From positions 1 to 54,847 of the forward strand of contig JBDRCO010000029.1 in assembly GCA_043821645.1 (NCBI GenBank): a stretch of 54,847 bases of DNA, in the 5' to 3' direction. The first letter of the stretch is position 1. Each line of letters begins with the position of its first letter. The notes under the pieces were generated by a model. The model saw nothing but the letters and a program-made list of their open reading frames with translations, searched no databases and was not told where the DNA came from. The stretch is from Pseudomonadota bacterium (GTDB taxonomy: Bacteria > Myxococcota > JACRCW01 > JAFGSX01). Below are positions 10,539-32,973 of the stretch, one piece after another. A program made the translations under genes and the position numbers.

Positions 10539-10565
10539 GACTTCTGAAGCGTCCGGGGCAGCCGT

Positions 10566-10645
10566 GGTGTGGGGCTCCCGCGACGGGGCAAGCCTTCTTG
10601 TCCTCGCAAGCTGCGAAAAAAAGTCTTGCCCCTGCGCCCCACACC
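10566..10645. repeat. ~80 bp palindromic intergenic element, family B copy 1
   Basis: Nested inverted repeats GGTGTGGGGC/GCCCCACACC, GGGGCAAG/CTTGCCCC and TCGCA/TGCGA. Aligns by eye with the reverse complement of 14422-14495. Confidence 0.7.
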
Positions 10646-11224: not shown

Positions 11225-11304
11225 GGAGGGGACTGGCACTGACCATTACATTTATTTTGCTAATATTTACATAACATTAAATACATATCTGTAAGGACAA
11301 AATG
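11225..11304. repeat. Inverted-repeat element family A, copy 1 (truncated: left arm plus AT-rich spacer; right arm lost after AAAATG)
   Basis: GGAGGGGACTGGCACTgACcATTACATTT at 11225-11253 differs from the consensus arm at 2 positions. The element ends with TCTG-N7-AAAATG, as copies 2 and 3 do before their right arms. Confidence 0.75.
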
Positions 11305-11406
11305 GGACCTCTATCCACACCGGGCGCGCCCGCCATCCATGTCGAGATGAAGGGGGCGGCTGGGCCACGGGCCCCGCGCCCGTCGGTCGACCTGACCGAG
11401 ATCGGC

Positions 11407-13830
11407 CTAGAAGTTCATTCCCAGGTTCAGCACGCCACGCAGCATGGACAGGGGCACGCCAGCGGCGGCCTGATAGCTCGGTCCGTTCGACACACCCGCG
11501 GCCTGATACCATTCCAGGCTGGCCTCGAGGCGGGGACGCAGCAGCGGATGCAGGGCGAACTCGACGCCGAGCGTGGTGAACAGGTAGGGATCCAGGGCCA
11601 TGGCGTCGTCGCGTGCCACGCTCAGCGCCTGCCCCGGGTAGCGCTGGTGGCTGATCTGCCAGGCCCCCGCACCCAGGTCGAGGTCGACCCGCAGCGCGTC
11701 GGCAGGGCGCAGCACCACACCCAGGGCCAGGTGGTTGCGCACCAGCTCCTGGTAGAGAATGTTGGGCGCATAGGCGCGCTCCAGCGAGCCGTGCAGGGTC
11801 ATCCATTCGAGCTCCAGAAGGCGCATCCGGAGCTGCAGCATCGGGGTGCCCGGCACGTCGGGAAAGTCCTCGAGGTTGGGCACCTGCCAGCCCACGAAGA
11901 GCACATCCTCATTGCCCGGTTTGTCCGTCCTGGGCTGAAAACCCACGCCCACGTGCGCCAGCACACTGCGGTGTCGCGGTGCCGAGAAGGAGGCGTAGCC
12001 CAGACCTGCCGCGGCGAACAGGTTCATCAAGCCGGGCAACACCTTGATGTAGGCATCGGCGACCAGACCGCCCAGCGAGCCCTCGGGCAGCCCCGCCCGG
12101 GTCAGCGCGTCGGGGGCCGCAGTGTCGACGAGCTGGCCCAGCTCCGCCGACGAGTCCACCACGTTGTGCTGGGTGTAGCGCCCCAGCCATAACGAGCCGC
12201 CGGCCTCGGCGCCCATCTCGTCAAGGAAGATCAGGAAGGCAGCCTGCAGCAGGTTGCTCTGGCGAGCGATGGTTTCGCCATACAGCCCCGCGCCCATGGG
12301 GATGGGAGCGCCCTGCAAGGACACGAAACGCCCGGGCTCCAAGCCGACCTCGGCGCGGTCGCGGAGCAACAGCCACCAGATGTCCTCGCCGTAGATCAGC
12401 TCGCCGTCGACGAAGCTGTCCAGCAGCAGCGGGTTCAGGGTCGCCTCCCGGCTGACGCCTGCGGCATCGTCCGGTCCGAACAGGGCCCGATAGTCGAGCT
12501 GCGCCTGGAGCTGAAACTGCCACTCGCTGTCGAGCACCTGCATCGCGACGCCAGGGACCAGCTGCGCCACGGCGTGCGGCTTCAGATACAGGTCGCTGCT
12601 GCCGTCGTTGCGCAGACCGCCGGCGTTGATGCGGTAGGGGTTGCTGTCCACACCCGCCATCGCCTGGAGCGAGAAGCGCGCGGGGCCCAGCTCCAGCGCC
12701 TCGGGCAGGCCAAGCTCAAGGCCGTCGTCGGTGTCGCTGTCCGTCGTGGACGACGATTCGACCTCGGCATCGGCGCCGGATTCACCCCCGACTTCGTCCT
12801 CGACCTCGGTTGTGGAGCCCTCGTCGGTCCGGTCCGGGCCGTCCTCGTCCGGGCTTGCCTCTGTCCGCGCCGGCGCTGCCGGTTGTGCGGCGCCCGCGGC
12901 AGTGGCGGGATCCCGATCCAGCACCAGCCTGTCCTTGTAGTCGCCACAGCTATCGCCGAACCACCTGGCGACCTTGACCTCGAGGTGATGGTCGGCGCCC
13001 TGGGGCTCGGCCAGGCAGAAGGCCACCTGCTCGGTCGAGCCCAGCACCGCCGAGACGACCAGCACATCGCCCAGCAGCTGCAGTTCGCCCACCGGAAAAC
13101 CTGTACTGGCGTCGAGCTTGCCCGAGGCCGAGCCGTCTTCGTCCACCACCAGGTGGGCGTCGTAGCTCACCGGTCCCCAGAAGCCCTTGCCCGTCCACAC
13201 GCCCTGCAACTTGCGGATGTCTGCCGCGGGAAGGGGGGCGCCGATGCGCAGTGGCTCGACCCCGGCGATCCCCTGGGGCTGGGGCCCGCAGCCCAGCCCG
13301 CCGAGGCAGGGTTGCAGCTCGAAGCTGGAATCCACGGGCTCGGCCGGGGGCAGAGCCCTGTCGTACCCGGAGCCGTGCGGCGCCTTCTTCTTGACCAGCC
13401 ACTCGACGGCCTCGGTCTTGTCCGCTTTGTCGGCGAGATCCAGCGCGGTGAAGCCCTCGTTGTTCTCGATGTCGAGGGGGGTATTGGGCATCAGCAGCAG
13501 CAGCGATCCGATGTGGCCTCCCTGGGCAGCGAGGTGCAACGGGGTGTTGCCCGCACGATCCTGGCGCCTGGCGTCGGCACCGCGCAGCAGCAACAGCTCC
13601 ACGATGTGAGTCTGGGCCACGGCGGAGTGCAGGGGTGTGGCGCCGCTCGCGGTGGTGGCGTGGATGTCAAAGCCGTCGTCGAGCATGCTGGCCACGACGT
13701 TCTCGTCGCCGATGATCACGGCCAGGTGAAGCAGCTCGGTCTTTTCTGCCTCGGTGTAGGCCTGCGCCTGGCCAGAAGTCAGCACGGCGCTCCCGCAGAG
13801 AATGAGCAGGGCAACTCGCGCACGCAGCAT
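11407..13830 (-). CDS. Secreted ankyrin-repeat protein fused to a probable outer-membrane beta-barrel
   Basis: Signal peptide (AQA), ankyrin repeats (GATPLHSA, GNTPLHLAA, GFTALDLA), acidic linker, then GVDSNPY and alternating beta-strands ending in C-terminal F. GGAG RBS before ATG 13830. Confidence 0.75.
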   Translation of the reverse strand: MLRARVALLILCGSAVLTSGQAQAYTEAEKTELLHLAVIIGDENVVASMLDDGFDIHATTASGATPLHSAVAQTHIVELLLLRGADARRQDRAGNTPLHLAAQGGHIGSLLLLMPNTPLDIENNEGFTALDLADKADKTEAVEWLVKKKAPHGSGYDRALPPAEPVDSSFELQPCLGGLGCGPQPQGIAGVEPLRIGAPLPAADIRKLQGVWTGKGFWGPVSYDAHLVVDEDGSASGKLDASTGFPVGELQLLGDVLVVSAVLGSTEQVAFCLAEPQGADHHLEVKVARWFGDSCGDYKDRLVLDRDPATAAGAAQPAAPARTEASPDEDGPDRTDEGSTTEVEDEVGGESGADAEVESSSTTDSDTDDGLELGLPEALELGPARFSLQAMAGVDSNPYRINAGGLRNDGSSDLYLKPHAVAQLVPGVAMQVLDSEWQFQLQAQLDYRALFGPDDAAGVSREATLNPLLLDSFVDGELIYGEDIWWLLLRDRAEVGLEPGRFVSLQGAPIPMGAGLYGETIARQSNLLQAAFLIFLDEMGAEAGGSLWLGRYTQHNVVDSSAELGQLVDTAAPDALTRAGLPEGSLGGLVADAYIKVLPGLMNLFAAAGLGYASFSAPRHRSVLAHVGVGFQPRTDKPGNEDVLFVGWQVPNLEDFPDVPGTPMLQLRMRLLELEWMTLHGSLERAYAPNILYQELVRNHLALGVVLRPADALRVDLDLGAGAWQISHQRYPGQALSVARDDAMALDPYLFTTLGVEFALHPLLRPRLEASLEWYQAAGVSNGPSYQAAAGVPLSMLRGVLNLGMNF

Positions 13831-13960
13831 CTCCGACTCCTCCGACGGCAGCAGTGTGGCCGTCACGCCAGGTGGATGAGGTGAGTGGTGCGCGCATTAT
13901 TTCACACACCGGGGGTGCGGGGCACCGCCGAGTGCCGCGACGTGTGGCGTCGCCCTGGCC

Positions 13961-14182
13961 TTACTCGCAGCGCTCCAGCCGCAGCCACTGGGCGCGCGTA
14001 CTGGCGTCGAGGGCGACGTAGAAGTCCCACTTCAGGTCGGCGCCTCGTCGACAGGAGCCCTGCTGCAGGCCACTGATGGCGTCGACCAGCCTGTAGGACA
14101 GGTCGTCGCGCAGGGACATGGCCGCGGCCAGGTCGGGCGGGAGGCAGTAGCTCTGCGCCACCGCCACCGGCCACAGGTTGTG
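13961..14182 (-). pseudogene. Orphan 3' fragment (last 73 codons plus stop) of an alpha-amylase homologous to 24240-26315
   Basis: Ungapped manual alignment to 24240-24461: about 173/222 nt and 57/73 aa identical. Similarity stops at the left end of repeat A copy 2. Confidence 0.9.
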
Positions 14183-14199
14183 GGGAGGGGTCTTGTGGG

Positions 14200-14339
14200 G
14201 AGGGGTCTGGCACTTACAATTACATTTATATTCTGCACGATTTCTTTTAGTTATGACGATTAGATCATCCCATTTCGATACCGCAAACAGACGCGAAGTC
14301 TGCCACAAGAAAATGTAATTGTAAGTGCCAGTCCCCCTC
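14200..14339. repeat. Inverted-repeat element family A, copy 2 (REPIN/MITE-like, 140 bp)
   Basis: Left arm GAGGGGTCTGGCACTTACAATTACATTT (14200-14227), right arm AAATGTAATTGTAAGTGCCAGTCCCCCTC (14311-14339), AT-rich 83 bp spacer. Confidence 0.92.
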
Positions 14340-14421
14340 GCGCACCTTCGCGATTCTCCATCGCCTCATCCCCGGATAGGGTTGCAGCAGAGCACTACCG
14401 AATCGCTTTGATGGAGCTTGA

Positions 14422-14495
14422 TGTGGGGGCCCAGGAAAGGCTTTTTCCAAGCTCGCGAGGACAAAAAGACTCGCCGGTGAAGGCGTGGCCCCACA
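14422..14495. repeat. ~75 bp palindromic intergenic element, family B copy 2 (inverted relative to 10566-10645)
   Basis: TGTGGGG...CCCCACA ends. The reverse-complement core CTTTTTGTCCTCGCGAGCTTGGAAAAAG matches CTTCTTGTCCTCGCAAGCTGCGAAAAAAAG at ~10594. Confidence 0.7.
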
Positions 14496-14793
14496 ACAGG
14501 GTCGAATCTTAGCGATTTCGTATGACAGGCCTGGTTGAAACCACAAGGCAACTCGCCTGCACTCCGAATTTCCCGTGGCGCCAAGATGTTCGGCCCTGCT
14601 CAGGGGTCCCCGGCCACAGGGCGGAACTGCGCGATCGCTGCCGCGCGTTGAAGATGCACCCCGCAGACCGTCGCGGGGATTTCAACGAGCGGGGGACCAT
14701 CGTCACGCGAATCACGCAACGGCCAGAGTGGCGCAGCCGACACTGCGCGATGGCTCACGCCCGAGGGACTCTCGACGGGGAGCTGGAGGTTTT

Positions 14794-15135
14794 ATGAAGA
14801 TCCAGGGGTCCGGTTCTGCGTTGCATCTTCCACGGGAAGTGGGAGATGCGTCCCAGGTCCAGGGCCTGCCCACCGGCACCCAGCCGCAGCAGACTCCCAT
14901 CACACCCGAGAACTACCTGGACAAGTTCGAGGGTGTCAAGGCTGGCCAGGCCGGCTCGCTGGCCCCGTCAGTACAGCTGCCCGAGCTCAGCTTCGACAAG
15001 CTCAGCGACCTGAAGAACGAGGTGCAGCAAAAGCTGCAGGAGACCCACCGCGGCAAGCGCGGCGGCGGCAAGAAGGGCGTGGCCGACGACGACGAGGATG
15101 CCGACGGCGACGGGATCCCCGACAATCAGCAGTAA
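14794..15135 (+). CDS. Small hypothetical protein (113 aa) with acidic C-terminal DADGDGIPD motif
   Basis: GGAGG RBS followed by ATG at 14794 and strong GC3 codon bias. DxDxDG-type Ca-binding-like tail. Confidence 0.75.
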   Translation: MKIQGSGSALHLPREVGDASQVQGLPTGTQPQQTPITPENYLDKFEGVKAGQAGSLAPSVQLPELSFDKLSDLKNEVQQKLQETHRGKRGGGKKGVADDDEDADGDGIPDNQQ

Positions 15136-15310
15136 CGCGCGCGCGATGATCTGACATGCGACGCCTCGCTTGGGGGCCGAACCAGCTCCCTGCGCGCTCG
15201 CCTACACGGCCGGGCCCACGGTGGCCCCCGATAGCCTCAAAAATCAGTGACTGTCCCCGGGCCCGGAGGCCGTGTTTCTCGGGCTGTGGCGGTCCGTGCA
15301 CGGGCGGGCC

Positions 15311-15355
15311 TTGACGTGGACCAGGCTGTCGTGTATATGTTGAATTAATATTCAA
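15311..15355 (+). promoter_or_regulatory. Putative sigma70 promoter and TetR operator
   Basis: TTGACG-N17-TATATG (15311-15339), followed by the palindrome TTGAAT-N4-ATTCAA (15340-15355) 13 bp before the TetR start codon. Confidence 0.65.
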
Positions 15356-15368
15356 TGATATATCGACC

Positions 15369-16004
15369 ATGCCGAGAAAACAGAGTACCAACGAGCAGAT
15401 GCGGGATCAGCGGCGTGCTCAGATCCTGAGCGCCTCGCTGCAGCTCTTTGCCAGCCGCGGCCTGGCGGCGACGCGCATCTGCGATATCGCCGAGGCGGTG
15501 CCCATGGCCCAGGGCCTGGTCTACCACTACTTCTCCTGCAAGGAGGAGATCTTCACGGCGCTGATCCGCCACGCCTTCGAGCGCCTGAATGCCGCCTGCC
15601 AGGAACTCGAGGCGCTGCAGGCGCCGGCGCGGGACAAGGTCGACATGGCCCTGCGTGCCCTGCTGCAAGGCTTTGCCGAGGGCGAGGATGCGGCGCGCGC
15701 ACACATGCTCATCGCCCAGGCCACAGCCTCCACGGCGATCCCCGACGAGGCGCGGGCCATCCTCGCTCGCGACAGTGCGCTGCCCTACGAGGTGATGGCC
15801 AGGATCCTGGCCCAGGGTCAGCGCGAGGGCACGATTCGCGAGGCGGACGTGCAGCAACTGGCCCTGGTGTTCTGGACCACGATCAAGGGGTTGGCCATGC
15901 ACAGGGCAGCCCATGGCCAGGCGGCGGTGATGCCGGAGGCCGAGATCCTGATGGCGCTGTTCGACGCGCCGTTGTCGACCCAGGGCGCGGCCCGGGGAGC
16001 GTGA
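15369..16004 (+). CDS. TetR/AcrR family transcriptional regulator
   Basis: N-terminal HTH: IL.ASLQLFASRGLAATRICDIAEAV.MAQGLVYHYF.CKEEIF. Confidence 0.93.
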   Translation: MPRKQSTNEQMRDQRRAQILSASLQLFASRGLAATRICDIAEAVPMAQGLVYHYFSCKEEIFTALIRHAFERLNAACQELEALQAPARDKVDMALRALLQGFAEGEDAARAHMLIAQATASTAIPDEARAILARDSALPYEVMARILAQGQREGTIREADVQQLALVFWTTIKGLAMHRAAHGQAAVMPEAEILMALFDAPLSTQGAARGA

Positions 16005-16972
16005 TCATGCCTAGCCTGCGCAGCCGACTGTTTGTCTTCGCACTCAGGTTCCGCCTGTGGTTGAAGAGCCGCCGCGGTGGCCCCGAGGTCATCACCGAGG
16101 ACACCTCCATCGCCGAGCTGCGGGCGCGGGTCGAGAAGAGCGCCGGCATGTTTGGGAAGCTGGCGCCGGGTTTCACGATCGAGCCGGTGGACATCGAGGG
16201 TCTGAACGCGGAGTGGCTGCGTCCGCCCGCAGCCGCTGGCGACAAGGCCCTGCTGTACTTTCACGGCGGCGGTCTGGTAGTGGGCTCGGCGCGCTCGCAC
16301 CGCAACATCGTGCAGAAGTTCGCGGGGGCCTGCGGCGTGCCGGCGCTGGTGTTCGACTACGGTCTGGCGCCGGAGCAGCCCTTTCCGCGGGCACTGGAGG
16401 ATTCGCTGCGCGCCTACCGCCACCTGCTCGACGGCGGTCTTGCACCTCAGGACATCGTGTTCATGGGCGACTCGGGCGGTGGAAACCTGTGCTTGAGCAT
16501 CCTGCTCGCCTGCCAGCGCGACGGCCTGCCTCTACCCGCGGCCGTGGTCGCCCTGTCGCCGTGGACGGACCTGACCAACAGCGGCGCCAGCTACCAGGAG
16601 AACCTCGAGCGCGACCACCTGACCTGGCGCAACTCGGCTGCAGTGTTCGCGCGCTACTACGCCGGCGAGCACGCCCTGGACGATCCCCTGGTGTCGCCAC
16701 TGCATGGCGACCTGCGCGGTCTGCCGCCACTGCTGCTGTTCGCGGGCTCGGACGAGCTGATGCGAGACGACAGCGTGCGCTTCGCTGACAAGGCCAGGGC
16801 CGCGGGCGTCGACGTCACCTTGCATCTGGGCGAGGGCCTGTTTCACTGCTACCCGGCCTGCGCCGGGCTGTTTCCCGAGGCCACGCAGGCGCTGCAGGTC
16901 ATCGCGCGCTTCGTGCAAGGCTACTTGGGTCTTGAGTCGGCGTCCGAACCACGGAAGCGCAGCGCAGCCTGA
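16001..16972 (+). CDS. Alpha/beta hydrolase, HSL-type esterase/lipase
   Basis: HGGG oxyanion motif, GDSGG nucleophile motif, D and H (LFHC). GTGA overlap with the TetR gene. Confidence 0.92.
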   Translation: MIMPSLRSRLFVFALRFRLWLKSRRGGPEVITEDTSIAELRARVEKSAGMFGKLAPGFTIEPVDIEGLNAEWLRPPAAAGDKALLYFHGGGLVVGSARSHRNIVQKFAGACGVPALVFDYGLAPEQPFPRALEDSLRAYRHLLDGGLAPQDIVFMGDSGGGNLCLSILLACQRDGLPLPAAVVALSPWTDLTNSGASYQENLERDHLTWRNSAAVFARYYAGEHALDDPLVSPLHGDLRGLPPLLLFAGSDELMRDDSVRFADKARAAGVDVTLHLGEGLFHCYPACAGLFPEATQALQVIARFVQGYLGLESASEPRKRSAA

Positions 16973-17027
16973 GCCCACGCAGCGGCGGAACGCGCATCAC
17001 CGGTGGCCCCTTCCGGGTGGTCGGCCC

Positions 17028-17169
17028 GGAGGGGTCTGGCACTTACTATTACATTTTATTATTTAACTATTACGAACCATTAAGACGTATTTCTATTATC
17101 CATCGCGCGCTTCTGGGCAGGCGATAAATCTGCTTCCAGAAAATGTAATTGTAAGTGCCAGTCCCCTCC
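17028..17169. repeat. Inverted-repeat element family A, copy 3 (142 bp)
   Basis: 30 bp arms at 17028-17057 and 17140-17169 with 2 mismatches; AT-rich 82 bp spacer. Confidence 0.92.
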
Positions 17170-17268
17170 TGTTGCTCCTGTTGTCTCTCCTCTCCCCCCT
17201 CGATCTGTCTGCGTCCTGCAAGCACTTTTCCTTGGCGAAGAGGAGTAGGGAGTCTGCCTGGGTTAGTT

Positions 17269-17312
17269 TTATCCGGATAATATTGACATTATAATCTACC
17301 CGGGTATATTAT
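17269..17312 (+). promoter_or_regulatory. Putative sigma70 promoter with two related palindromic operators upstream of the DUF2239 gene
   Basis: TTATCCGGATAA (17269-17280) and TACCCGGGTA (17297-17306) sit either side of TTGACA (17283-17288); TATTAT at 17307-17312. Confidence 0.65.
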
Positions 17313-17339
17313 AGAAGACCCTCAAAGGTGGAGTCAATC

Positions 17340-17960
17340 ATGCTGGATACATTAGTAACAACAGGTTGTTACGCACTATTTTGCGGGACTGAACGGATCT
17401 GCACTGGGGCCATCGGTGAGGTGGTACGCGCGGCAAAAAATTGCGTGGATAGCGGGACGACGGAGCGCGTCGCCCTGTTCGACGACAGCTCGGGCCGTGC
17501 TCTCGATATCGACTATCGCGGCACCGTCGACGAGGTGCTCGCGCGCCTGCGCGACCACCCCATGTTGCCGCAGGCCGAGCGTGAAGCGCTGGCACCGAGG
17601 GGACCTGGACGGCCCCGCCTCGGCGTGGTGGCGCGCGAGGTCACCTTGCTGCCGCGGCACTGGGACTGGCTCGGCGAACAACCCGGAGGAGCCTCGGTGG
17701 CGCTGCGCAAGCTGGTTGACATCGCCAGGCGCGAGCACGCCGCGCGCGACCTGGCGCGCAGGGCGCAGGAGGCCACGCATCGTTTCATGTGGGACATGGC
17801 AGGCAACCTGCCCCGCTTCGAGGAGGTCTCGCGCGCGTTCTATGCCCGGGATTATGCCCGCCTCGACGAGCTGCTTGCACAGTGGCCCCTGGGCATCGCC
17901 GAGCACACGCGTCACCTGGTCAAGCAACAGCGCGACCTCGAGAAGCTGGCCGCGGGCTGA
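17340..17960 (+). CDS. DUF2239 family protein
   Basis: Family-typical FDD.SGR.LDID.RG, GRPRLGVVAREVTLLPRHWDWL.EQPGGASVALRKLV and AGNLP.FEE motifs; GGAG RBS. Confidence 0.88.
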   Translation: MLDTLVTTGCYALFCGTERICTGAIGEVVRAAKNCVDSGTTERVALFDDSSGRALDIDYRGTVDEVLARLRDHPMLPQAEREALAPRGPGRPRLGVVAREVTLLPRHWDWLGEQPGGASVALRKLVDIARREHAARDLARRAQEATHRFMWDMAGNLPRFEEVSRAFYARDYARLDELLAQWPLGIAEHTRHLVKQQRDLEKLAAG

Positions 17961-18076
17961 GTTCTCGTCAGACCGCGTGGAACAGGTGCGCAGACCTCTG
18001 GCGAGGCTGAGCGCTCGAGGGAGCCCGTCGTGGATCCTCGACCGGCGGAGCTGCCATCTGACGGCGCTGGCGCGAG

Positions 18077-19006
18077 CTACTCGAAGTTACCGTGCCCGGT
18101 CAAAAGAGCGCCGGCGATGCCCGAGGCGGGCCACGCGAAGCTGTCGCTGACGACCTGACCATCGATACCGGTGAGACGGAGGGTGAACGCGCCCGCCCCG
18201 AAACCGCTCGCGTCGTTGAGCGTGCCGTCGCTGCCGCGGACCAACGCGGTGTAGCTCGCGTGGTTGGCGCTCAACACCTCGACCTTGTGCAGGGGCACGC
18301 GCGCGTTGCGCACCCACAGGCTGGTCCACCACTCGCTCGAGCCAGTCTGGAACTCGTACAGCAGGGGCCCGGTGTCGGGACAGCGTGCAAACTGCCAGCT
18401 CATGTGCCTCGGGTATTCGCCGCTGTCGAGCACAGCGTAGGCCTCGGGACTGGTGTCGATGCTGTTGGTGGTGGTCACGCCGAAGGTGACGACGCGCAGA
18501 ACGGCGGACTTACCCATGGCGGTGACGATGTGGACGCAGGTGTCGCAGGCGTCCGCCACGTCGGGGATGCCGTTCCATAGCCCGGCCAGCAAGGTGCCCT
18601 GGGCTTGCTGGATCGCGGGCGCGTAGCCCGAACCCGGCGCGCAGGCGTTGTGCCACACCGACTCCTGGTAGTCGACAGGGCCAAGATGGAATTCGCCTCC
18701 CTGGTAGGTCGGTCCGTAGGTGACGACGGTTTCGGCCGCATCCGCGGTCGCGTCGACGGGCTGCGCCGTGTCAGGAAGGGTCCGGGTGTCCGCCGCGCTG
18801 GCGTCGACGGTCTGCACCGTGTCGGGAAGGGTCCGGGTATCCGTCGCGCTGCTGCGATCCTGGCCGGTGTCAACGTGAACGGCGGTGTCCGGTCGGGCGG
18901 CGGCATCGCTGTGGGCTCCCGAATCGGGCTCGCTGTCGTCGACAGACGGGCACGCCGCAACCAACACCCCGCAGGTCACTGCGAGCATCACACAGAGTCC
19001 GCGCAT
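18077..19006 (-). CDS. Expansin-like (EXLX1-type) lipoprotein
   Basis: Lipobox VAAC and D/T-rich linker with a duplicated DTRTLPDT. DPBB-like domain, then a CBM63-like domain (GSSEWWTSLWVRNARVPLHKVEV, FTLRLTGIDGQ). Confidence 0.72.
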   Translation of the reverse strand: MRGLCVMLAVTCGVLVAACPSVDDSEPDSGAHSDAAARPDTAVHVDTGQDRSSATDTRTLPDTVQTVDASAADTRTLPDTAQPVDATADAAETVVTYGPTYQGGEFHLGPVDYQESVWHNACAPGSGYAPAIQQAQGTLLAGLWNGIPDVADACDTCVHIVTAMGKSAVLRVVTFGVTTTNSIDTSPEAYAVLDSGEYPRHMSWQFARCPDTGPLLYEFQTGSSEWWTSLWVRNARVPLHKVEVLSANHASYTALVRGSDGTLNDASGFGAGAFTLRLTGIDGQVVSDSFAWPASGIAGALLTGHGNFE

Positions 19007-19134
19007 GCCATGCTCCCCCTCCCGTATGAGTTCCACTCCAGCCGTCGGTGGATCTTACTCGCGGTTGGTGCCCGGTAAACACGATGTTATGCGCGTCGTG
19101 ACTCGAGGAAACCCCCGGCGGCGCTCGAGATCGT

Positions 19135-19374
19135 TCAGCCCAGAGCCGCTTTGTTCGCGGCAGCGCGGGAGGTGGCGGTCCGAAGCTGCTTGAGAAAGAG
19201 GTCCAGTGGCACACCGTGGACACGCGCGGCCATCCCCACCGTGAGGAATCGGGTCACAAGGCGGCGAACGCTGAAGGGTCCCACACGCCTCACGCCAAAG
19301 CTCTCCATCACCTCGGCGACGTCGCCATACGCGTCGAGGATCTTGATGACCCGGGTGTCCTTGGTGATGTCCAC
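19135..19374 (-). CDS. Small DUF1858-like protein
   Basis: ITKDTRV..IL..Y.DV.EV..SFG...TV..AARVHGV.LD..LKQL pattern; GGAGG RBS before GTG. Confidence 0.7.
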   Translation of the reverse strand: MDITKDTRVIKILDAYGDVAEVMESFGVRRVGPFSVRRLVTRFLTVGMAARVHGVPLDLFLKQLRTATSRAAANKAALG

Positions 19375-19513
19375 GCTGCCTCCGCGCCGCGAACGGTCCC
19401 GCTGTCGGGTGACCGTGCACAGGCTACAGGACTATCCAGCCCTCCCCTGCTCACGGCGCAGCCCTGGGTGGCGGAGGTCTGTCACCCGCAACGTCGCGGA
19501 TGGCAGGTCGTGT

Positions 19514-21544
19514 TCACTTCTCGGTGAAGGCGTACTCGTGCTGGGCGTCGCGGACGATGAGCGTGCGCTTGTCGCCACTGCCCACGACGAACTCGAAACC
19601 CGCGATGCCGGGAGCCGTGGTCACGAAGGACAGCGTGCCGTCGGGATTTTTCCGTGATGCGACCTCGCTGCGCCACTCACCAAAATCGAAAACCGTCGCG
19701 CCCTTTTTCTGGCTCACCGCGATCTCGCCGAGCGCGTCGCTGGTGTAGCGGCTGGCGAGCTTTGCGGCCTCGGCGGGATCTGCGGGCACGGTGAGCAGCT
19801 TGCGCTCGGCAGCCAGCTGGTCGAAGTAGCTCCTGGCCTTGGAGGCCACGAGCGCGTCGGCCTCCGGCACACCGTCGAACAAGATCTCGAGCAGCTTGCG
19901 CTGGAATGGCCACAGCAGGAGCCAGCCCGGATCGCTGTTGGTCAGCACCACCGCGCCGACGCCGTGCTCGGGCAGCCACATCATGTCGGAATAGAAGCCG
20001 ATCATGGCACCGCCGTGGTGGACCACCGGCACGCCATAGGTGGTGTCCACCTCGAGTCCCATGCCGTAGGTCGTGTTGCTGCCTATGGTCACCTGGGGCG
20101 CGCGCCGCGCCAGCAAGGTATCCCGCTCGATGTAGCGCGTGCCGTCGGGCAGCACTCCCTCGGCCAGCTCCATGGCCACGTATGCAAGCAGGTCATGGAT
20201 GTTGCTCCAGGCGGCACCGGCGGGCCGTAGGGGGAGGATGGAGTAGTTGAGCTCCATCACCGCGGCCGCTGGCTTGCCGTCGATGTCAGGAGCATGCGGC
20301 ATGGCGTGGTTGCCGCGCAGCACCCGTGCATAGTCGAAGCTGGTCGACTTCATGCCGAGCGGGCCGAACACGCGTGTCTGCATGGCCTTGTCGTAGGCAG
20401 CTCCGAGTTCGAGCTCGGGGAACGCGACGTGCCCGCCGACGAACCCACCCGCACCGGCGAGGGGGTTGGAGTACTGGAACATTTCGCCGAAGCCACTGGT
20501 TGGCTGCATGGTCGCCAGCGTCGCCAGCGCGCCGTCGGGGGTCACCCCCTTGAACTCGAACAACCACTCCATGTCCTGGCGCGGCAATCCGGTGCAGGCG
20601 CAGATCAGGTGCTTGACCTGGACCTGGCTGGTGGTGGCGTCGTCGCCAAGCTTGAACGACGGCAGCAGGCTGGTCACCGGCGTGTCCCAGGTCAGCTTCT
20701 TCTCATCGACCAGCTTGCCCAGCATGAGCGTGGTCATGGCCTTGGTGTTCGATGCGACCATGAACAGCGTCTCGGCGTCGACCTTCTGCTTTCCCCCGAG
20801 CTGACGCACGCCAAAGCCATCGGCGAACACCACCTTGCCAGCCTGGATCAGGCCCACCGCGACCCCGGGTACACCGAGCTGCTTCATCGCAGTCTGGACG
20901 AAACCGTTGAAGGCCGCGATTCGCGCGGCATCCAGGGGCTGCGCTGATTTCCCGGCAAAGGACTCGCGGCTGTGCCCCTTGGGCAGCAGCTGATCGAAGA
21001 TCAGAGCGACCTGGGCCAGGCGTTTTTCACCGACCGCCTGGGTCATGTCATAGATGGCCACGGTCCACACCTCGTTGGCCCGCCGCACGTAGACACCGAC
21101 GTCGCGCTTCTCGTTGGGTGAGGTCTGGTAGCTGTACGCGCTGCGATCGGTCCAGCCGTCCCGGTCCGGGGACGGGCTGACCACCTTGAGCGGCCACGTG
21201 ACGTCGGGCTTGTAAACCTTCCAGGCCGCGGCCACCGCTGCGTCCGCACTGCCAGCCCGCAGATCGATGAGGGCGATGCGAGAGTCTCCCTCGGGAGCTT
21301 CGAGGATGGTAGACGGGCCGCGAACGGTGATGCTCCAGCCAGCCGGCGCGATGAAGCCGTTGCCCTCGGTGGTGGTCCTCGGCGCGTCGCTGGTCAGGTG
21401 CTCGACGACGGGTTCAGGTGCCGGGGTGGGCGATTCGACGGAGGTCGAGGTCTGCGCTGGTGTCTGAGGTGTCGTCGTCTTGCAGGTGGCGAGAACGCAC
21501 GCACCGGTGATCACCGCTGCTGCGACCGAAAGGAGTCGACGCAT
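19514..21544 (-). CDS. Serine hydrolase, beta-lactamase class C/PBP-like family, lipoprotein
   Basis: SxxK (ASNTK), YxN (YSN) and HHGG motifs; signal with Cys; GGAGG before ATG 21544. Confidence 0.9.
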   Translation of the reverse strand: MRRLLSVAAAVITGACVLATCKTTTPQTPAQTSTSVESPTPAPEPVVEHLTSDAPRTTTEGNGFIAPAGWSITVRGPSTILEAPEGDSRIALIDLRAGSADAAVAAAWKVYKPDVTWPLKVVSPSPDRDGWTDRSAYSYQTSPNEKRDVGVYVRRANEVWTVAIYDMTQAVGEKRLAQVALIFDQLLPKGHSRESFAGKSAQPLDAARIAAFNGFVQTAMKQLGVPGVAVGLIQAGKVVFADGFGVRQLGGKQKVDAETLFMVASNTKAMTTLMLGKLVDEKKLTWDTPVTSLLPSFKLGDDATTSQVQVKHLICACTGLPRQDMEWLFEFKGVTPDGALATLATMQPTSGFGEMFQYSNPLAGAGGFVGGHVAFPELELGAAYDKAMQTRVFGPLGMKSTSFDYARVLRGNHAMPHAPDIDGKPAAAVMELNYSILPLRPAGAAWSNIHDLLAYVAMELAEGVLPDGTRYIERDTLLARRAPQVTIGSNTTYGMGLEVDTTYGVPVVHHGGAMIGFYSDMMWLPEHGVGAVVLTNSDPGWLLLWPFQRKLLEILFDGVPEADALVASKARSYFDQLAAERKLLTVPADPAEAAKLASRYTSDALGEIAVSQKKGATVFDFGEWRSEVASRKNPDGTLSFVTTAPGIAGFEFVVGSGDKRTLIVRDAQHEYAFTEK

Positions 21545-21771
21545 GGCAGGCCCTCCGTGTTGAGTGGCTGGATGGACCGCTCCAGAGAGCACTTGTGACC
21601 CTTCGAAGCAAGACCGGTGAACTCCCCGCGGTGTTGGGGGTCGCGCCCCGCGAGACACGACTGTTCAGAGCGTAAATGCGCACGGATTCACGGGCTGTTG
21701 CTCGCGGATTGAGAAGAAGACGAAACGAGATGAAACAAAACAAGTTGAGAGGAGATGGGATGGATCGTAGC

Positions 21772-21906
21772 AGGGGACTGGCACTTACAATTACATTTTT
21801 TTGTATCATGTTAGCCATATGTTAGCATGATAATTGGAAGTAATTCCGCTCTCAATTTAGATCGCATTTTTTCTGCTTAATATGTAATTGTAAGTGCCAG
21901 TCCCCT
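21772..21906. repeat. Inverted-repeat element family A, copy 4 (135 bp)
   Basis: Perfect 25 bp arms: AGGGGACTGGCACTTACAATTACAT (21772-21796) and ATGTAATTGTAAGTGCCAGTCCCCT (21882-21906); AT-rich spacer. Confidence 0.93.
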
Positions 21907-22134
21907 ATTTGTCCCTATTTTTAATCTTCATGTGCCCCCTATGCCCCCCCTTCCAGCGCTCATCCATGTCCCTACTACCCCGCTTTCCTTCCACGCCCTC
22001 CCGGAGCCTTCGAGCGCGCATATCCGGCATATGTTGTCCCGAAAGGCCTGGAGCTGAGATGGCCCCCCGGCGGATCCGCTCAATTCCCGGTTCGCGGGTT
22101 TGCTTCTCGAAGCGACTGCGGGCACATTGGAAGG

Positions 22135-24239: not shown

Positions 24240-26315
24240 TCAGTCGCAGCGCTCGAGCCGCAACCACTGCGCGCGCGTGTCCGCGTCCATGGAGACGTAG
24301 AAGTCCCACTTCAGCTCCGCACCACTGCGACACGCTCCCTGCTGCGCACCGCCGATGGCGTCCACCAGCCGGTAGCGCAGGTTGTCGCGAAGCGAGAGCG
24401 CGGCGGCCAAATCCGGCGGCAGGTAGTAGCTCTGCGCCACGTCTTGGGCCCACAGGTTGTGCACGGCGAACACCACGTTGCCGTCGTCACTCCAGCGCGC
24501 GGCAGCATAGATGCGCGGGTCCGCATCGTTGCCGTGACGCCGGCGCAGAAAGCGATAGTTGGGCGCGCGCAGGGCGCGGTTGCGGTGGTCGAGGCGAGCT
24601 TCGATCAGCTGCCGGTAGTAGCCCAGCAGCTCGCGCACCTGTGGATGGCGCTGCGGCGTGCCCACCAGGCGGCTGCGCAGCAGGTCAGAGCGGCGGAAAC
24701 CCAGCTGCCAGGGTTCGCCCAGCTCCTGCCCCATCACCAGCATGGGCGTCGAGCGCGTGCTGGCGCCAATGCCCCAGAAGCCGGCGCCGGTCCACACGTC
24801 GAAGCCCGTGCCATCGGTCAGGCGCTTCTCGTCGTGCGTCTCCAGCGCGCTCAGCACCAGGCTGTGGCCGCCGAAGCGTTGCATGTTGGACACCACCTGC
24901 TCGACGTGGGAGGCGTCCTTGATCACGCCACCACGGCCCGTCATGTCGCCGACGTAGCCCTCGGTGAGGATGTCCACCACCCGGTTCATGTCCTGCTGGT
25001 CGTGAAACTCCTCGGCCAGGTACACCGGCCGCGCCTGGCCCCGTCGCCAGGCGTAGTAGTCGACCTTGCCCAGCACGTACTTCCAGAAATTGGCGTCGAT
25101 GCCGGAGCGCTCGTCGCTGGTGTGATCGAGCCGGAAGCCGTCGACGCCGCGCGACGCCCAGTAGTTGAGGACGCGGAACAGGTACTCGCGGTTGCGCACG
25201 AACTCGTGCTGGTGGGCCGGATCCTCCTCGCGCAGGTACAGGAATTTCACATCGCGCCAGTTGTTGGTGAAGTTGTCGCCGACACCGCGCGAGGGATTGT
25301 GCCCATCGCGGCCCAGGTAGAAGCCCGGCGCCTGGTACTCGAGGAAGCTCGTGTCACAGGGGAACTGTGCTCGCTCGTGCTCGAGGGCGATGCGCCATGC
25401 GCCGTAGGCCTGCACCAGGGCCTGCCCCGAGAGCTCGGGGCATCGATCCAGCAAGGCGCCGAGCCGCTCCGCGTGCCAGGGCGAGCTGGCGGCCAGGGCC
25501 TCGAGCTGATCCGGGTCCTCGAGCAGCTGCGGACGGATGAGGTAGCTCTCCTCGGTGGCCCGGTAGTCCCACAGGGCTCGCAGGTCCTCGCCGGCCGCGA
25601 TGCGCTCGCGCACCGGCAGAAAGGCCGTGCTGTCGTAGAGCTGGTAGTTGTGGCCCAGGTGGTTGAAGGCCACGTCGAGGAACACCTTGAGGCCGCGCTG
25701 GTGCGCCTGCGCGATCAGCGCATCGAGCTCGACATTGCCATGGCACGGCACCTCGCTCGATTCGTCGCGGCCGGCCAGGATGCAGCGCCGCGCCAGGGTT
25801 CCGCGGGCGTGCAGGTAGTCGCGCACCGCGTAGGGCGAGCCGAGGTCGTCGCAGGCGTCGGGAATGCTCCAGCGATCGTTGTTGGGGAACAGCGGCATCA
25901 GCCACAGCGCGCTGGCGCCGAGCGCCTCGTCGATGTGGCGCACGGTGATGCCGCGGTCAAAGCCCGACGTGTCCTCGAGCAGGTCGTCCAGCGTGCCGAG
26001 CCTGATCTTCTTGAGCGCGTCCAGCTGACCGCAGTGCATGCCCTCGGCCCGGTAGGGGATGTCCGGTGCGACCTTGGCAGTGCAGCGCTGGCGCTGTGCT
26101 AACGAGCCCAGGTCGGGGTGGCAGGCGTTGGCCGTGCGCACCTGCAACTCGTACAGCACCATCTCGCCCGCTGCCGGATTGAGCGCGTTGTAGTCGACCG
26201 GGGCCAGCGCGCCATCGTCGCTGGCACCGGTGAGCTCGAAGGAGTCGTCCAGCGGCCCACAGGCCAGCAGCGAGAGCAGCAGCAACGGAGTGCAGGACAG
26301 CTTGGTGCGGGACAT
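24240..26315 (-). CDS. Alpha-amylase family (GH13) glycoside hydrolase, lipoprotein
   Basis: LWLMP, GSPYAVRDY, DVAFNH, DGFRLDH, YLAEEF and ETHD conserved regions; LLAC lipobox; AAGGAGG RBS. Confidence 0.9.
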   Translation of the reverse strand: MSRTKLSCTPLLLLSLLACGPLDDSFELTGASDDGALAPVDYNALNPAAGEMVLYELQVRTANACHPDLGSLAQRQRCTAKVAPDIPYRAEGMHCGQLDALKKIRLGTLDDLLEDTSGFDRGITVRHIDEALGASALWLMPLFPNNDRWSIPDACDDLGSPYAVRDYLHARGTLARRCILAGRDESSEVPCHGNVELDALIAQAHQRGLKVFLDVAFNHLGHNYQLYDSTAFLPVRERIAAGEDLRALWDYRATEESYLIRPQLLEDPDQLEALAASSPWHAERLGALLDRCPELSGQALVQAYGAWRIALEHERAQFPCDTSFLEYQAPGFYLGRDGHNPSRGVGDNFTNNWRDVKFLYLREEDPAHQHEFVRNREYLFRVLNYWASRGVDGFRLDHTSDERSGIDANFWKYVLGKVDYYAWRRGQARPVYLAEEFHDQQDMNRVVDILTEGYVGDMTGRGGVIKDASHVEQVVSNMQRFGGHSLVLSALETHDEKRLTDGTGFDVWTGAGFWGIGASTRSTPMLVMGQELGEPWQLGFRRSDLLRSRLVGTPQRHPQVRELLGYYRQLIEARLDHRNRALRAPNYRFLRRRHGNDADPRIYAAARWSDDGNVVFAVHNLWAQDVAQSYYLPPDLAAALSLRDNLRYRLVDAIGGAQQGACRSGAELKWDFYVSMDADTRAQWLRLERCD

Positions 26316-26329
26316 GATCTCCCTCCTTG

Positions 26330-26349
26330 GTAACTCTTTAGAGAGTTAC
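26330..26349. promoter_or_regulatory. Perfect inverted repeat, candidate operator upstream of the amylase gene
   Basis: GTAACTCT-TTAG-AGAGTTAC just upstream of the RBS; TTGACG on the minus strand at 26360-26365. Confidence 0.5.
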
Positions 26350-30929: not shown

Positions 30930-31082
30930 TCGCGCTGCGACTTTTCTCACTTCGTGACATCCTTGGTTGGGACCGGCAGCGTGCCGGTGAGCTTGTGTGC
31001 GCGTCGTCACACCCGGGTCGAAGCGCGGTCCAAAGCGCCGCTGGCCCGGCTATGAAGCGAGAGACCTGTCCGAGGACAAAAC

Positions 31083-32945
31083 ATGCGACCATGGACCGTG
31101 ATGCTCCTGTTCTCTGCCGTCTCGGCCTGCGTGGTCGAGCACGCGACCGATGACGGTAGCTACAGGCCGGTGTTTCGTGACGCCGCCGGGAGCGACGCGG
31201 CGGCTGTCGATGCGGGCCCCGGCCATGACGCGAGCGGGACCGACCTGGGCATCCCGGACAGCGCCAGGCCGGACAGCGCGGCTCGCGACCAGCACAGCAG
31301 CGACTCCGCGAGACCTGACAGCGCAGTGGCCGACGCCACCACGGCCTGCAGCGTCGACGACAGCTACGAGCCCAACGACATCGCCAGTGAGGCCACACCC
31401 ATCAGCGTGCCGGTGCGCTTCGACAGCCTGGTGGGCTGCGACGACGACTGGTACAGCTTCACCGCGCCGGCGGGCTCCGGCGTCGAGGTCAAGCTCGAGT
31501 TCGTCGATGCCGTGGCGGACCTCGACCTCTACCTGAGCCGCGCCTCGGACGGCTCCAGCATTGACTCGTCCCTGTCCACCACCGACGACGAGCTGGTGCA
31601 GGCCCCGCTGCAGGTGACGGCCACGCCCATGCGCATCCGGGTCAGGCATTTCTCGGGCAGCAGCGCGCCATACGCCCTCGAGGTCCGCTTGCTCGGCCCC
31701 CCGGCCAACGACACCTGTGCCGCGGCCGAGAGCGTGACCCTGCCCAGCAATGGCACGTCCGCGTGGATAGACGCGAGCACGACGATGGCGTCGGATAGCA
31801 GGAGTTCCAGCACCAGCGGTTGCCAGATCCTGACGGCGGGCTCTCCAGGCCCTGACCTTTTTTACACCTTCGTGGCGCCGGCAACGGGCTTCTTGCTCGC
31901 CGAGCTGTGGGAATCGGAATGGCAGGGCGTGATCTCGGTGTTCGAAAGCTGCGGCGCGAGCACCGAGCTGGCTTGTGGCAGTGCCGCGCTCGCGGTCCCC
32001 ATCCAGGCGGGACACAGCTACGTTGTCGCAGTGGACGCGAAGTCCACGGGCAGCGGCGAGTTCTCGCTGGACTTGAGGTATCAGGCGGCCCCCACCAACG
32101 ACACCTGCGCCGGCGCCAAGACCCTGGATCCTCCGACGGATGGCTACATCCTGGTCACCAACGGTCACACCGGCACGGGGACGGATACCCGCTCGGCCAC
32201 CAGCTCGAGCGAGTACTGCCAGGCCACGGCCCGGTTCGCACCGGACCTGTACTACACCTTCATGGCGTCCCGAAATGGCACTGTGCGCGCAAAGCTCAAC
32301 GCCTGGGACTGGGACGCGAGCATGTACGTGCTCGAGGGGGGGTGCGGCGCCTCGACCGAGCTGGTCTGCAACGGCGAGTTCTACGTCAAGGATCCCCTGT
32401 GGTACCGCTTTGACGTGGTGCAGGGTCAGACCTACGTCGTGGTGGTCGATGGCTACGCCGACACCTGCTGCAGCCCAGCCAGCGGCTCTTTCGAGGTGGG
32501 GCTGGGCTACTACATCCAGCCTGCGACCCTGCAGGGAGGCGAGACCTGTGCCCAGGCCGTGCCCCTGGTGGGGAGCAGCGGCACCGTTCACGGCACGACC
32601 GAGACGGGCGTCAACGACCTGTCACCCGACGCCATGGGCTGCAACCTGGCGGCACCCGGCAACGACACCTTCTACAAGCTGACGCTGGCCCCGGGTCAGA
32701 GTGCCACCATCACCCTGCAGCATGGCGATCCCTACAAGGGGGCTGTGCTGGTCACCATGCGCGCCGATTGCCCGGTACGCGGGGACTCGTGCCTGGACGC
32801 GGAGACCTTTTCCGCGAGCGAGTTCGCCACCCAGTATATCGTCAACAGCGGCACCACGGCTGCCGACTACTTCGTCGTCGTCGACGCCTACGCGACCTAC
32901 TACGGCGAGCCTTATGACCTGAAGTGGACGATCACCGGGCCATGA
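31083..32945 (+). CDS. Multi-domain surface lipoprotein (PPC-like plus repeated NDTC..A beta-sandwich domains), paralog 1
   Basis: Lipobox VSAC-VVEHATDD; DDSYEPND/DDDWY/DLDLY PPC-type domain; repeated P.NDTC..A..DL.Y.F..Y.V.VD modules. Confidence 0.82.
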   Translation: MRPWTVMLLFSAVSACVVEHATDDGSYRPVFRDAAGSDAAAVDAGPGHDASGTDLGIPDSARPDSAARDQHSSDSARPDSAVADATTACSVDDSYEPNDIASEATPISVPVRFDSLVGCDDDWYSFTAPAGSGVEVKLEFVDAVADLDLYLSRASDGSSIDSSLSTTDDELVQAPLQVTATPMRIRVRHFSGSSAPYALEVRLLGPPANDTCAAAESVTLPSNGTSAWIDASTTMASDSRSSSTSGCQILTAGSPGPDLFYTFVAPATGFLLAELWESEWQGVISVFESCGASTELACGSAALAVPIQAGHSYVVAVDAKSTGSGEFSLDLRYQAAPTNDTCAGAKTLDPPTDGYILVTNGHTGTGTDTRSATSSSEYCQATARFAPDLYYTFMASRNGTVRAKLNAWDWDASMYVLEGGCGASTELVCNGEFYVKDPLWYRFDVVQGQTYVVVVDGYADTCCSPASGSFEVGLGYYIQPATLQGGETCAQAVPLVGSSGTVHGTTETGVNDLSPDAMGCNLAAPGNDTFYKLTLAPGQSATITLQHGDPYKGAVLVTMRADCPVRGDSCLDAETFSASEFATQYIVNSGTTAADYFVVVDAYATYYGEPYDLKWTITGP

Positions 32946-32973
32946 TCTGTCGTGGAATGTCTAAGGAGCTGTG

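Follow-up and report, generated by a model that had tools for sequence, protein, structure and literature searches.

Contig JBDRCO010000029.1 of the assembly GCA_043821645.1 (labelled a Pseudomonadota bacterium and placed by GTDB within the Myxococcota) was analysed over 54,847 nucleotides, and this whole stretch is called the window in what follows. Within 10.7 kb of it lies an array of short inverted-repeat elements, three of which are complete (E2, E3 and E4) and one of which is a truncated copy (E1). The array is real and non-random, and its members form a sequence family without a match in any of the collections or the literature searched. The reading which accommodates the data best, and to which we tentatively give a little less than an even chance, is that of a family of terminal-inverted-repeat elements resembling MITEs (transposable elements of miniature size with inverted repeats), mobilised in trans and inserted without target duplications. 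That the elements move at all, that an enzyme acts on them in trans, what the AT-rich linker between the arms does and that copies hop locally are what we infer from the arrangement described below.

Searching the window for the 26-nt arm GGGGWCTGGCACTTACAATTACATTT with up to three mismatches gave seven matches (11228+, 14202+, 14311-, 17031+, 17141-, 21773+ and 21880-), none of them with more than two mismatches, and not a single match was obtained in 100 dinucleotide-preserving shuffles of the same DNA. A looser scan, which allowed up to nine mismatches in 28 positions and also accepted half-arms with three to four mismatches, added no further arm in the 54.8 kb; the seven-arm array, of which the initial annotation had seen no arm elsewhere in the stretch, is thereby confirmed. 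Coordinates and gene map also agree with its count of three complete elements and one truncated element, all of them intergenic, and each of the four sits in an AT-rich island of a genome of about 68% GC. The clustering of four points in 10.7 of 54.8 kb corresponds to P ~0.025, which is a post-hoc figure. The truncated copy E1 is located between the convergent 3' ends of a membrane-protein gene and the ankyrin gene; its AT-rich interior continues for about 50–75 nt, after which GC-rich DNA sets in and no right arm follows. Its solo arm is also the most diverged one, with two mismatches in the 26-nt core as compared with none or one in the other six arms.

The arm pairs of the complete elements are inverted repeats of 26–30 nt, which according to the repeat finder are 93–96% complementary, and they are separated by 79–83 nt if the arms extended by the repeat finder are taken, or by 81–84 nt if the distance is counted between the 26-nt cores. 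Whole elements measure 133–142 bp and are non-coding; open reading frames (ORFs) crossing E2 match no Pfam family. No Rfam family was matched at gathering scores and no tRNA was found, and the E-value mode of the Rfam search gave only chance matches to plant microRNA hairpins and to one small-RNA model, the latter well short of the threshold set for it. The inverted repeat is prolonged by three outer bases, GGA/TCC, in four of the seven arms, and the flanks beyond these bases are not conserved. A single arm possesses neither a palindromic core nor dyad symmetry, but carries a tandem TTACA-N-TTACA instead; because of this lack of dyad symmetry, the arm looks like an end site for one protein subunit and the pair of arms like the two ends of a transposon.

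Arms and interiors differ strongly in their conservation. The arms are 94–98% identical between elements as opposed to 45–53% for the interiors (Fisher P <= 3e-8), in line with the earlier statement that the arms are conserved and the spacers variable, and the interiors are held at a length of 81–84 nt with a GC content of 32–41%. That these spacers share no obvious similarity, as had also been stated, is correct for E4 but not for E2 and E3, whose interiors are homologous in the same orientation (the observed score was reached by 1 of 500 shuffles) and which as whole elements are 72% identical over 143 nt. The left interiors of E1 and E3 show a marginal likeness (13 of 500 shuffles), and the E4 interior, which contains a 12-bp hairpin of its own, does not significantly resemble those of E2 and E3 either in the same orientation (99 and 112 of 500 shuffles) or flipped (11 and 152 of 500). 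The homology of their interiors suggests that E2 and E3 are diverged relatives which have kept their ends intact. The contrast between near-identical arms and strongly diverged but homologous interiors may mean either that the arms are selected in place, or that the copies stem from long-lived lineages which have to keep their ends in order to keep moving, as described for populations of REPINs, that is, paired repetitive extragenic palindromic (REP) sequences (PMC3116915). All copies in the window appear to point the same way, because E2 and E3 have a common asymmetry at arm position 5, where the left arm carries T and the right one A, and because GCAGA occurs after all three right arms, within 3–7 nt; E1, E2 and E3 are oriented by interior similarity, E4 only by the GCAGA just inside its right arm.

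The one direct piece of evidence for breakage and joining of DNA at an arm tip is the truncation of an amylase gene at E2. Comparison of the window with itself aligned positions 13965-14182 with 24244-24461, which lie within the intact amylase-family gene, at 78% nucleotide identity; the protein encoded by the remnant is identical to residues 629-701 of the intact amylase in 57 of 73 positions (78%), with neither a gap nor a frameshift. The homology stops at 14182 and the left arm of E2 starts at 14199, and the 16 nt between them represent the second copy in a perfect tandem duplication of 15 bp, so that, to judge from the sequence, the amylase fragment directly abutted the arm tip before this duplication arose. 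The breakpoints at arms that had been expected from the array are thus represented by one case, a paralogue cut exactly at the left tip of E2. The two copies show a synonymous divergence (dS) of 0.82 and a nonsynonymous divergence (dN) of 0.14; the resulting dN/dS of 0.175 shows that they diverged as working genes and hence that the truncation came late, the remnant having been a working gene for most of its divergence. Other pieces of amylase were not found in the window, where the next matches have E values of at least 0.37, and the sequence to the right of E2, which was tested as the missing 5' part of the gene, did not prove to be so.

The arm tips are further distinguished by short tandem duplications. 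Perfect, non-simple tandem duplications with a period of 8–20 occur only four times in the whole window and two of them straddle arm tips, at the left end of E2 and at the right end of E3; an imperfect one at the right end of E4 was recognised by direct reading, outside the scan for perfect repeats (see Table 1 for all three). Since the chance of falling on an arm tip amounts, by a rough estimate, to ~0.003 for each duplication, coincidence is an unlikely explanation. The duplications may have arisen by replication slippage at the base of a hairpin, or possibly by failed end-processing on the part of the element's enzyme.

According to the MITE-like reading, the four repeats would be one family of small (133–142 bp), non-coding and non-autonomous mobile elements, each built of two 26–29-bp terminal inverted repeats around an AT-rich linker of 81–84 bp. 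An enzyme whose gene lies at some other place in the genome would bind and cut each arm with one of its subunits, and the linker would need only AT-richness and the right length, letting the two ends come together. The copies would have built up within the 10.7 kb by short-range movement and by rearrangements starting at element ends; one such event would have joined the left tip of E2 to the interior of a second amylase gene, the rest of which was lost, and another would have deleted the right half of E1. The genes between the copies would be ordinary chromosomal genes that could in principle move as composite units, their capture being a conjecture; no special capture system is needed to account for them, because it is already documented that MITE copies can form the boundaries of composite units (PMC13367494). 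The points which we count in favour of a MITE-like family are the result of 0/100 in the shuffles, the size together with the terminal inverted repeats, the conserved ends, the homologous interiors of E2 and E3, the single arms without dyad symmetry, the decayed E1, the broken amylase, the intergenic sites and the precedent of the composite units just mentioned.

With their terminal inverted repeats, a length between 50 and 500 bp, which is the range given for bacterial MITEs (PMC13367494), and no transposase gene inside, the elements resemble MITEs in several respects. They depart from canonical MITEs in their flanks. When the ends were shifted by up to +/-8 nt for every element and for every left-right pairing, the longest direct match between flanks had 3 nt in the case of single elements and 4 nt in that of pairings, and random position pairs in the window do better than this, 215 of 300 reaching at least 4 nt. 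As insertion leaves no detectable target duplication, the enzyme probably is not a typical staggered-cut DDE transposase, and the elements should be filed neither as canonical MITEs nor as Tn3-derived elements. A Tn3-derived miniature element (TIME) was rejected as well on the grounds that there are no direct repeats and no blastn match to any plasmid record; only the GGGG at the start of the arm shows what we take to be a resemblance to Tn3-family ends. With bacterial MITEs and the composite units bounded by them, for example TIMEs and TIME composites (TIME-COMPs), the elements share that they are short, non-coding, bounded by terminal inverted repeats and presumably served by an enzyme in trans, that several copies bracket gene segments of 1 to >10 kb and that truncated genes are found at element ends; they differ by having no 5-6-bp (or any) direct repeats, by strongly diverged interiors between near-identical ends and by lacking a match to plasmid-borne elements (PMC13367494). 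We regard them as a variant of the small terminal-inverted-repeat element, without duplications and with a REPIN-like conservation of the ends only.

Several results weigh against this reading, the missing target-site duplications being the first of them. The arm pattern, searched exactly with 21 specified bases and N at three variable positions, had no match in one genome per species from 185,579 species, and an arm with up to six mismatches was present in none of the 16 related loci which were fetched via the flanking amylase, where no comparable inverted-repeat element was found either. A blastn search with E3 against plasmid and phage collections gave no match. Peptides encoded by ORFs running through the arms (three inward frames and one outward frame) had no counterpart among predicted proteins of ~70-240 residues, a search of low sensitivity, and one of these peptide searches returned seven candidates that had words in common with the query, none of which scored. 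MITEs generally occur in many dispersed copies and have a parent with identical ends that codes for the transposase; neither an autonomous parent element nor a transposase was seen in the scanned part of the window, the Pfam scan having covered 183 of the 206 stop-to-stop ORFs of at least 120 codons (the other 23 are alternate-frame ORFs at 47.4-54.8 kb); in agreement with the initial annotation, no transposase or integrase is among the scanned ORFs, and neither is another recombinase, a Y1 transposase or an invertase. The missing 5' part of the amylase gene lies beside no other arm in the window, which calls for one additional rearrangement or more. Finally, if the arms were functional sites of the host under selection in place, the conservation pattern would be accounted for equally well.

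The searches for relatives also define how far the window can be compared. The closest relatives of the amylase among the 185,579 species genomes are found in 16 loci (L001-L016) with 57-63% identity, all in uncultured Myxococcota-type metagenome-assembled genomes. None of these loci shows synteny with the window, the amylase alone matching in all 16; other matches are an alternate-frame match to the amylase end in L006, a melibiase-like match of 29% in L011 and one of 32% to the gene at 26683 in L014. The low identity of the amylase relatives and the absence of a common gene order mean that the lineage of the window has no close representative in the genome collection. Among plasmids, only the DUF2239 gene of modules 2 and 3 is matched (69-75% identity in the best 10 of 148 matching records). 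The arm string had no match in the literature searched, and on MITEs in Myxococcota or myxobacteria no relevant literature was among the matches listed.

A site-specific recombination system has to be weighed first among the alternatives, although we consider it unlikely. Each arm would then be the site of a recombinase encoded elsewhere, and the alternating sites would let units of an element plus a gene module excise, insert and invert, as in the dif modules of Acinetobacter and, more loosely, in integron cassettes. The arms do alternate in orientation and at 26-29 bp have the size of a core site, the elements appear to lie in the same orientation, the arms are conserved in place and target duplications are absent; a close structural precedent exists in the dif-module arrays, with alternating 28-bp sites, ORF-less modules, excision of module pairs and an enzyme in trans (PMC13141974). 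The likeness to these modules (pdif, XerC/XerD) extends to modules of unrelated genes and to the absence of duplications (PMC13141974), whereas the array described here is chromosomal, belongs to a Myxococcota-like genome, has arms without dyad and contains a constant unit of ~82 nt between site pairs. In a dif site of 28 bp, a 6-bp spacer separates two distinct arms for recombinase binding; arm length and alternating orientation fit such a site, and no partial dyad symmetry was seen in the arm, as judged without comparison with the Xer consensus. The dyad generally expected of a crossover site bound by two subunits is missing. Arbitrary modules would not be expected to keep a constant unit of 81-84 nt, the break in the amylase is at an arm's outer tip and not within the arm, no recombinase is encoded in the scanned part of the window, and several genes, with intergenic regions of their own, occupy both strands of the modules.

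For the cassette-like gene capture proposed in the initial annotation we found no positive evidence: the modules hold two to four genes on both strands, the arms are without dyad, and the right arms lack the GTT core. An integron attC array was rejected on the same grounds and because no integrase is present in the scanned ORFs. Integron cassette arrays have attC core motifs at the outer ends of their sites, an adjoining integrase and mostly single promoterless ORFs in one orientation. With attC sites the elements have in common imperfect inverted repeats, a similar total length, a variable centre and a position between genes, and the differences lie in the near-perfect stems in addition to the missing integrase, the missing GTT-type core and the multi-gene modules on both strands. 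That an as yet unknown recombinase encoded elsewhere shuffles units of element and gene module, in a chromosomal Myxococcota system analogous to dif modules or integron cassettes, the site being of a new kind, ~135 bp long with two arms and an AT-rich linker that does no more than pair them, is a proposal to which we attach a rather small probability.

The REP/REPIN label given to the array earlier is likewise not supported, and it is improbable that a single-copy HUH/Y1 enzyme of the REP-associated tyrosine transposase (RAYT) type moves the elements in REPIN-like fashion, as single-stranded DNA. Some properties would agree with it, namely the absence of target duplications, the short tandem duplications at the hairpin base and the folding of the whole element as single-stranded DNA, which gives a stem of 26-30 bp closed by a large loop (z -5.9 to -9.5), the stems being perfect except for one T-T mismatch in E2 and in E3. 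REPINs with RAYT also have conserved inverted arms, a spacer whose length is kept while its sequence is less conserved, an extragenic location, no duplication and more decayed solo arms, just as seen here (PMC3116915). The defining feature of REPs, however, is an imperfect palindromic core, and that of REPIN spacers the capacity to form hairpins (PMC3116915), and in both respects the elements differ: an arm by itself remains unfolded (minimum free energy 0 to -0.6 kcal/mol, a value equalled or bettered by 47 and 200 of 200 shuffles), and the interiors pair no better than their shuffles (z -0.03, -1.17 and -1.76). REPs and REPINs are further characterised by extragenic copies in the hundreds and by a linked RAYT gene in single copy; a Y1 transposase, as stated above, is absent from the scanned ORFs.

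Improbable to the same degree are invertons, in which the arm pairs would flank a short AT-rich segment flipped by a master invertase and thereby switch neighbouring genes on or off; an inverton has a promoter inside the segment and occurs in both orientations within a population. Inverted repeats around a short AT-rich segment, with the same arms at several intergenic sites and without duplications, would suit such switches, and each of the three complete copies has one or more gene starts downstream of it at a distance of 114-229 nt; a promoter-like (sigma-70-like) site within the E4 interior is directed at the hydrolase gene. No such site is present within E2 or E3, though, the arms have no dyad symmetry, no invertase is found among the scanned ORFs, and the gene cut at an arm tip as well as the half-deleted copy would be left unexplained. 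At about 82 bp the segment would also be very short for an invertible one. Fixed host cis-elements (paired protein-binding sites, insulators or terminator-like hairpins), locally duplicated but not mobile, are very improbable: arms conserved in place while the interiors drift, the intergenic position of all copies and the failure to find a copy in the species genomes or the related loci would agree with them, but regulator half-sites are usually shorter than an invariant 26-29 nt, the genes around the copies have unrelated functions and an amylase gene has been truncated at an arm tip. The arm motif TGGCAC was tried as the -24 element of a sigma-54 promoter (for example at 14207-14223), but such a promoter is unlikely, since a -12 element at the proper distance is missing, the next TTAC being one base too far away and without the G of the consensus.

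Table 1 Coordinates of the elements, the duplications at arm tips, the amylase copies and the modules in the window
Feature	Position	Strand	Description
E1, truncated copy	11225-~11305	+	left arm 11225-11253 and part of the AT-rich interior, without right arm
E2, complete	14199-14339	+	arms 14199-14227 and 14311-14339; interior 83 nt, 41% GC
E3, complete	17028-17169	+	arms 17028-17057 and 17140-17169; interior 84 nt, 39% GC, homologous to E2 interior
E4, complete	21770-21908	+	arms 21772-21799 and 21879-21906; interior 81 nt, 32% GC
Perfect 15-bp tandem duplication	14178-14207		spans junction of amylase remnant and E2 left arm
Perfect 9-bp tandem duplication	17166-17183		spans E3 right arm tip and flank
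Imperfect 11/12-bp tandem duplication	21900-21922		spans E4 right arm tip and flank
Amylase remnant	13964-14182	-	last 73 codons and stop, in frame; ends at E2 left arm tip
Intact amylase-family gene	24240-26345	-	701 aa; paralogue used as reference for the remnant
Module 1	11306-14198		ankyrin-repeat protein 11407-13866 (-); amylase remnant
Module 2	14340-17027		weakly coding stretch with small ORF (to 15135); TetR 15369-16004 (+); Abhydrolase_3 esterase 16001-16972 (+)
Module 3	17170-21769		DUF2239 17328-17960 (+); expansin-like 18077-19036 (-); DUF1858 19135-19431 (-); beta-lactamase-family hydrolase 19514-21658 (-)

The sequences between the elements are listed in Table 1 as modules 1 to 3. 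Their sizes of 2.9, 2.7 and 4.6 kb had been given correctly, and their gene contents hold according to Pfam, for the amylase according to the self-comparison and for the expansin according to matches in the PDB, with DUF1858 on the minus strand. The expansin-like protein has no Pfam match and was assigned by its similarity to bacterial expansins in the PDB (E 2.5e-12). The modules comprise two to four genes, which occupy both strands and have intergenic regions of their own, and neighbouring genes are functionally unrelated.

A number of other features were observed in and around these modules. To the right of E2, about 1 kb (14340-15369) shows a weak or shifting coding signal, with a third-position GC content of 0.5-0.75 that rises to 0.9 only at 14840-15020; only the small C-terminal ORF ending at 15135 looks coding, and the stretch may be decayed sequence. 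A strong cluster of sigma-70-like promoters on both strands, with 11 of 12 consensus matches, lies at 17283-17337 in the AT-rich patch between E3 and the start of the DUF2239 gene, outside E3. The N-terminal low-complexity part of the expansin-like gene contains a 51-bp tandem repeat (18742-18843; two copies, 88% identical), which corresponds to a repeated unit of 17 residues. Beyond the array, two adjacent paralogous genes (31056-32945 and 32965-35046) with PPC and galactose-binding-like domains are 66% identical over ~390 nt. There is also a second, unrelated repeat of ~80 nt, GC-rich and inverted (10563-10645 on the plus strand and 14415-14500 on the minus strand), with a 34-nt core that is 82% complementary and without a match in Rfam; as RNA, the copy at 10563-10645, which precedes the membrane-protein gene on its upstream side, forms a strong hairpin (-44 kcal/mol, z -4.2), and the copy just to the right of E2 forms none (z -0.7). 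The two copies bracket the membrane-protein gene, E1, the ankyrin gene, the amylase remnant and E2.

Recognising the arm is already of practical use, since several spurious ORFs run through the elements and their misannotation can be averted. Should the arms prove to serve as switches or as sites of recombination and not as the ends of MITE-like elements, the locus would provide this phylum with a first case of such a system. If the elements do move, they would constitute a new family of small mobile elements in a poorly sampled lineage of the Myxococcota, and their insertion without target duplications would point to an enzyme and a mechanism still to be identified; directly repeated copies around groups of genes, together with a gene cut at an arm tip, would then mark a hotspot of rearrangement in a large, GC-rich genome.

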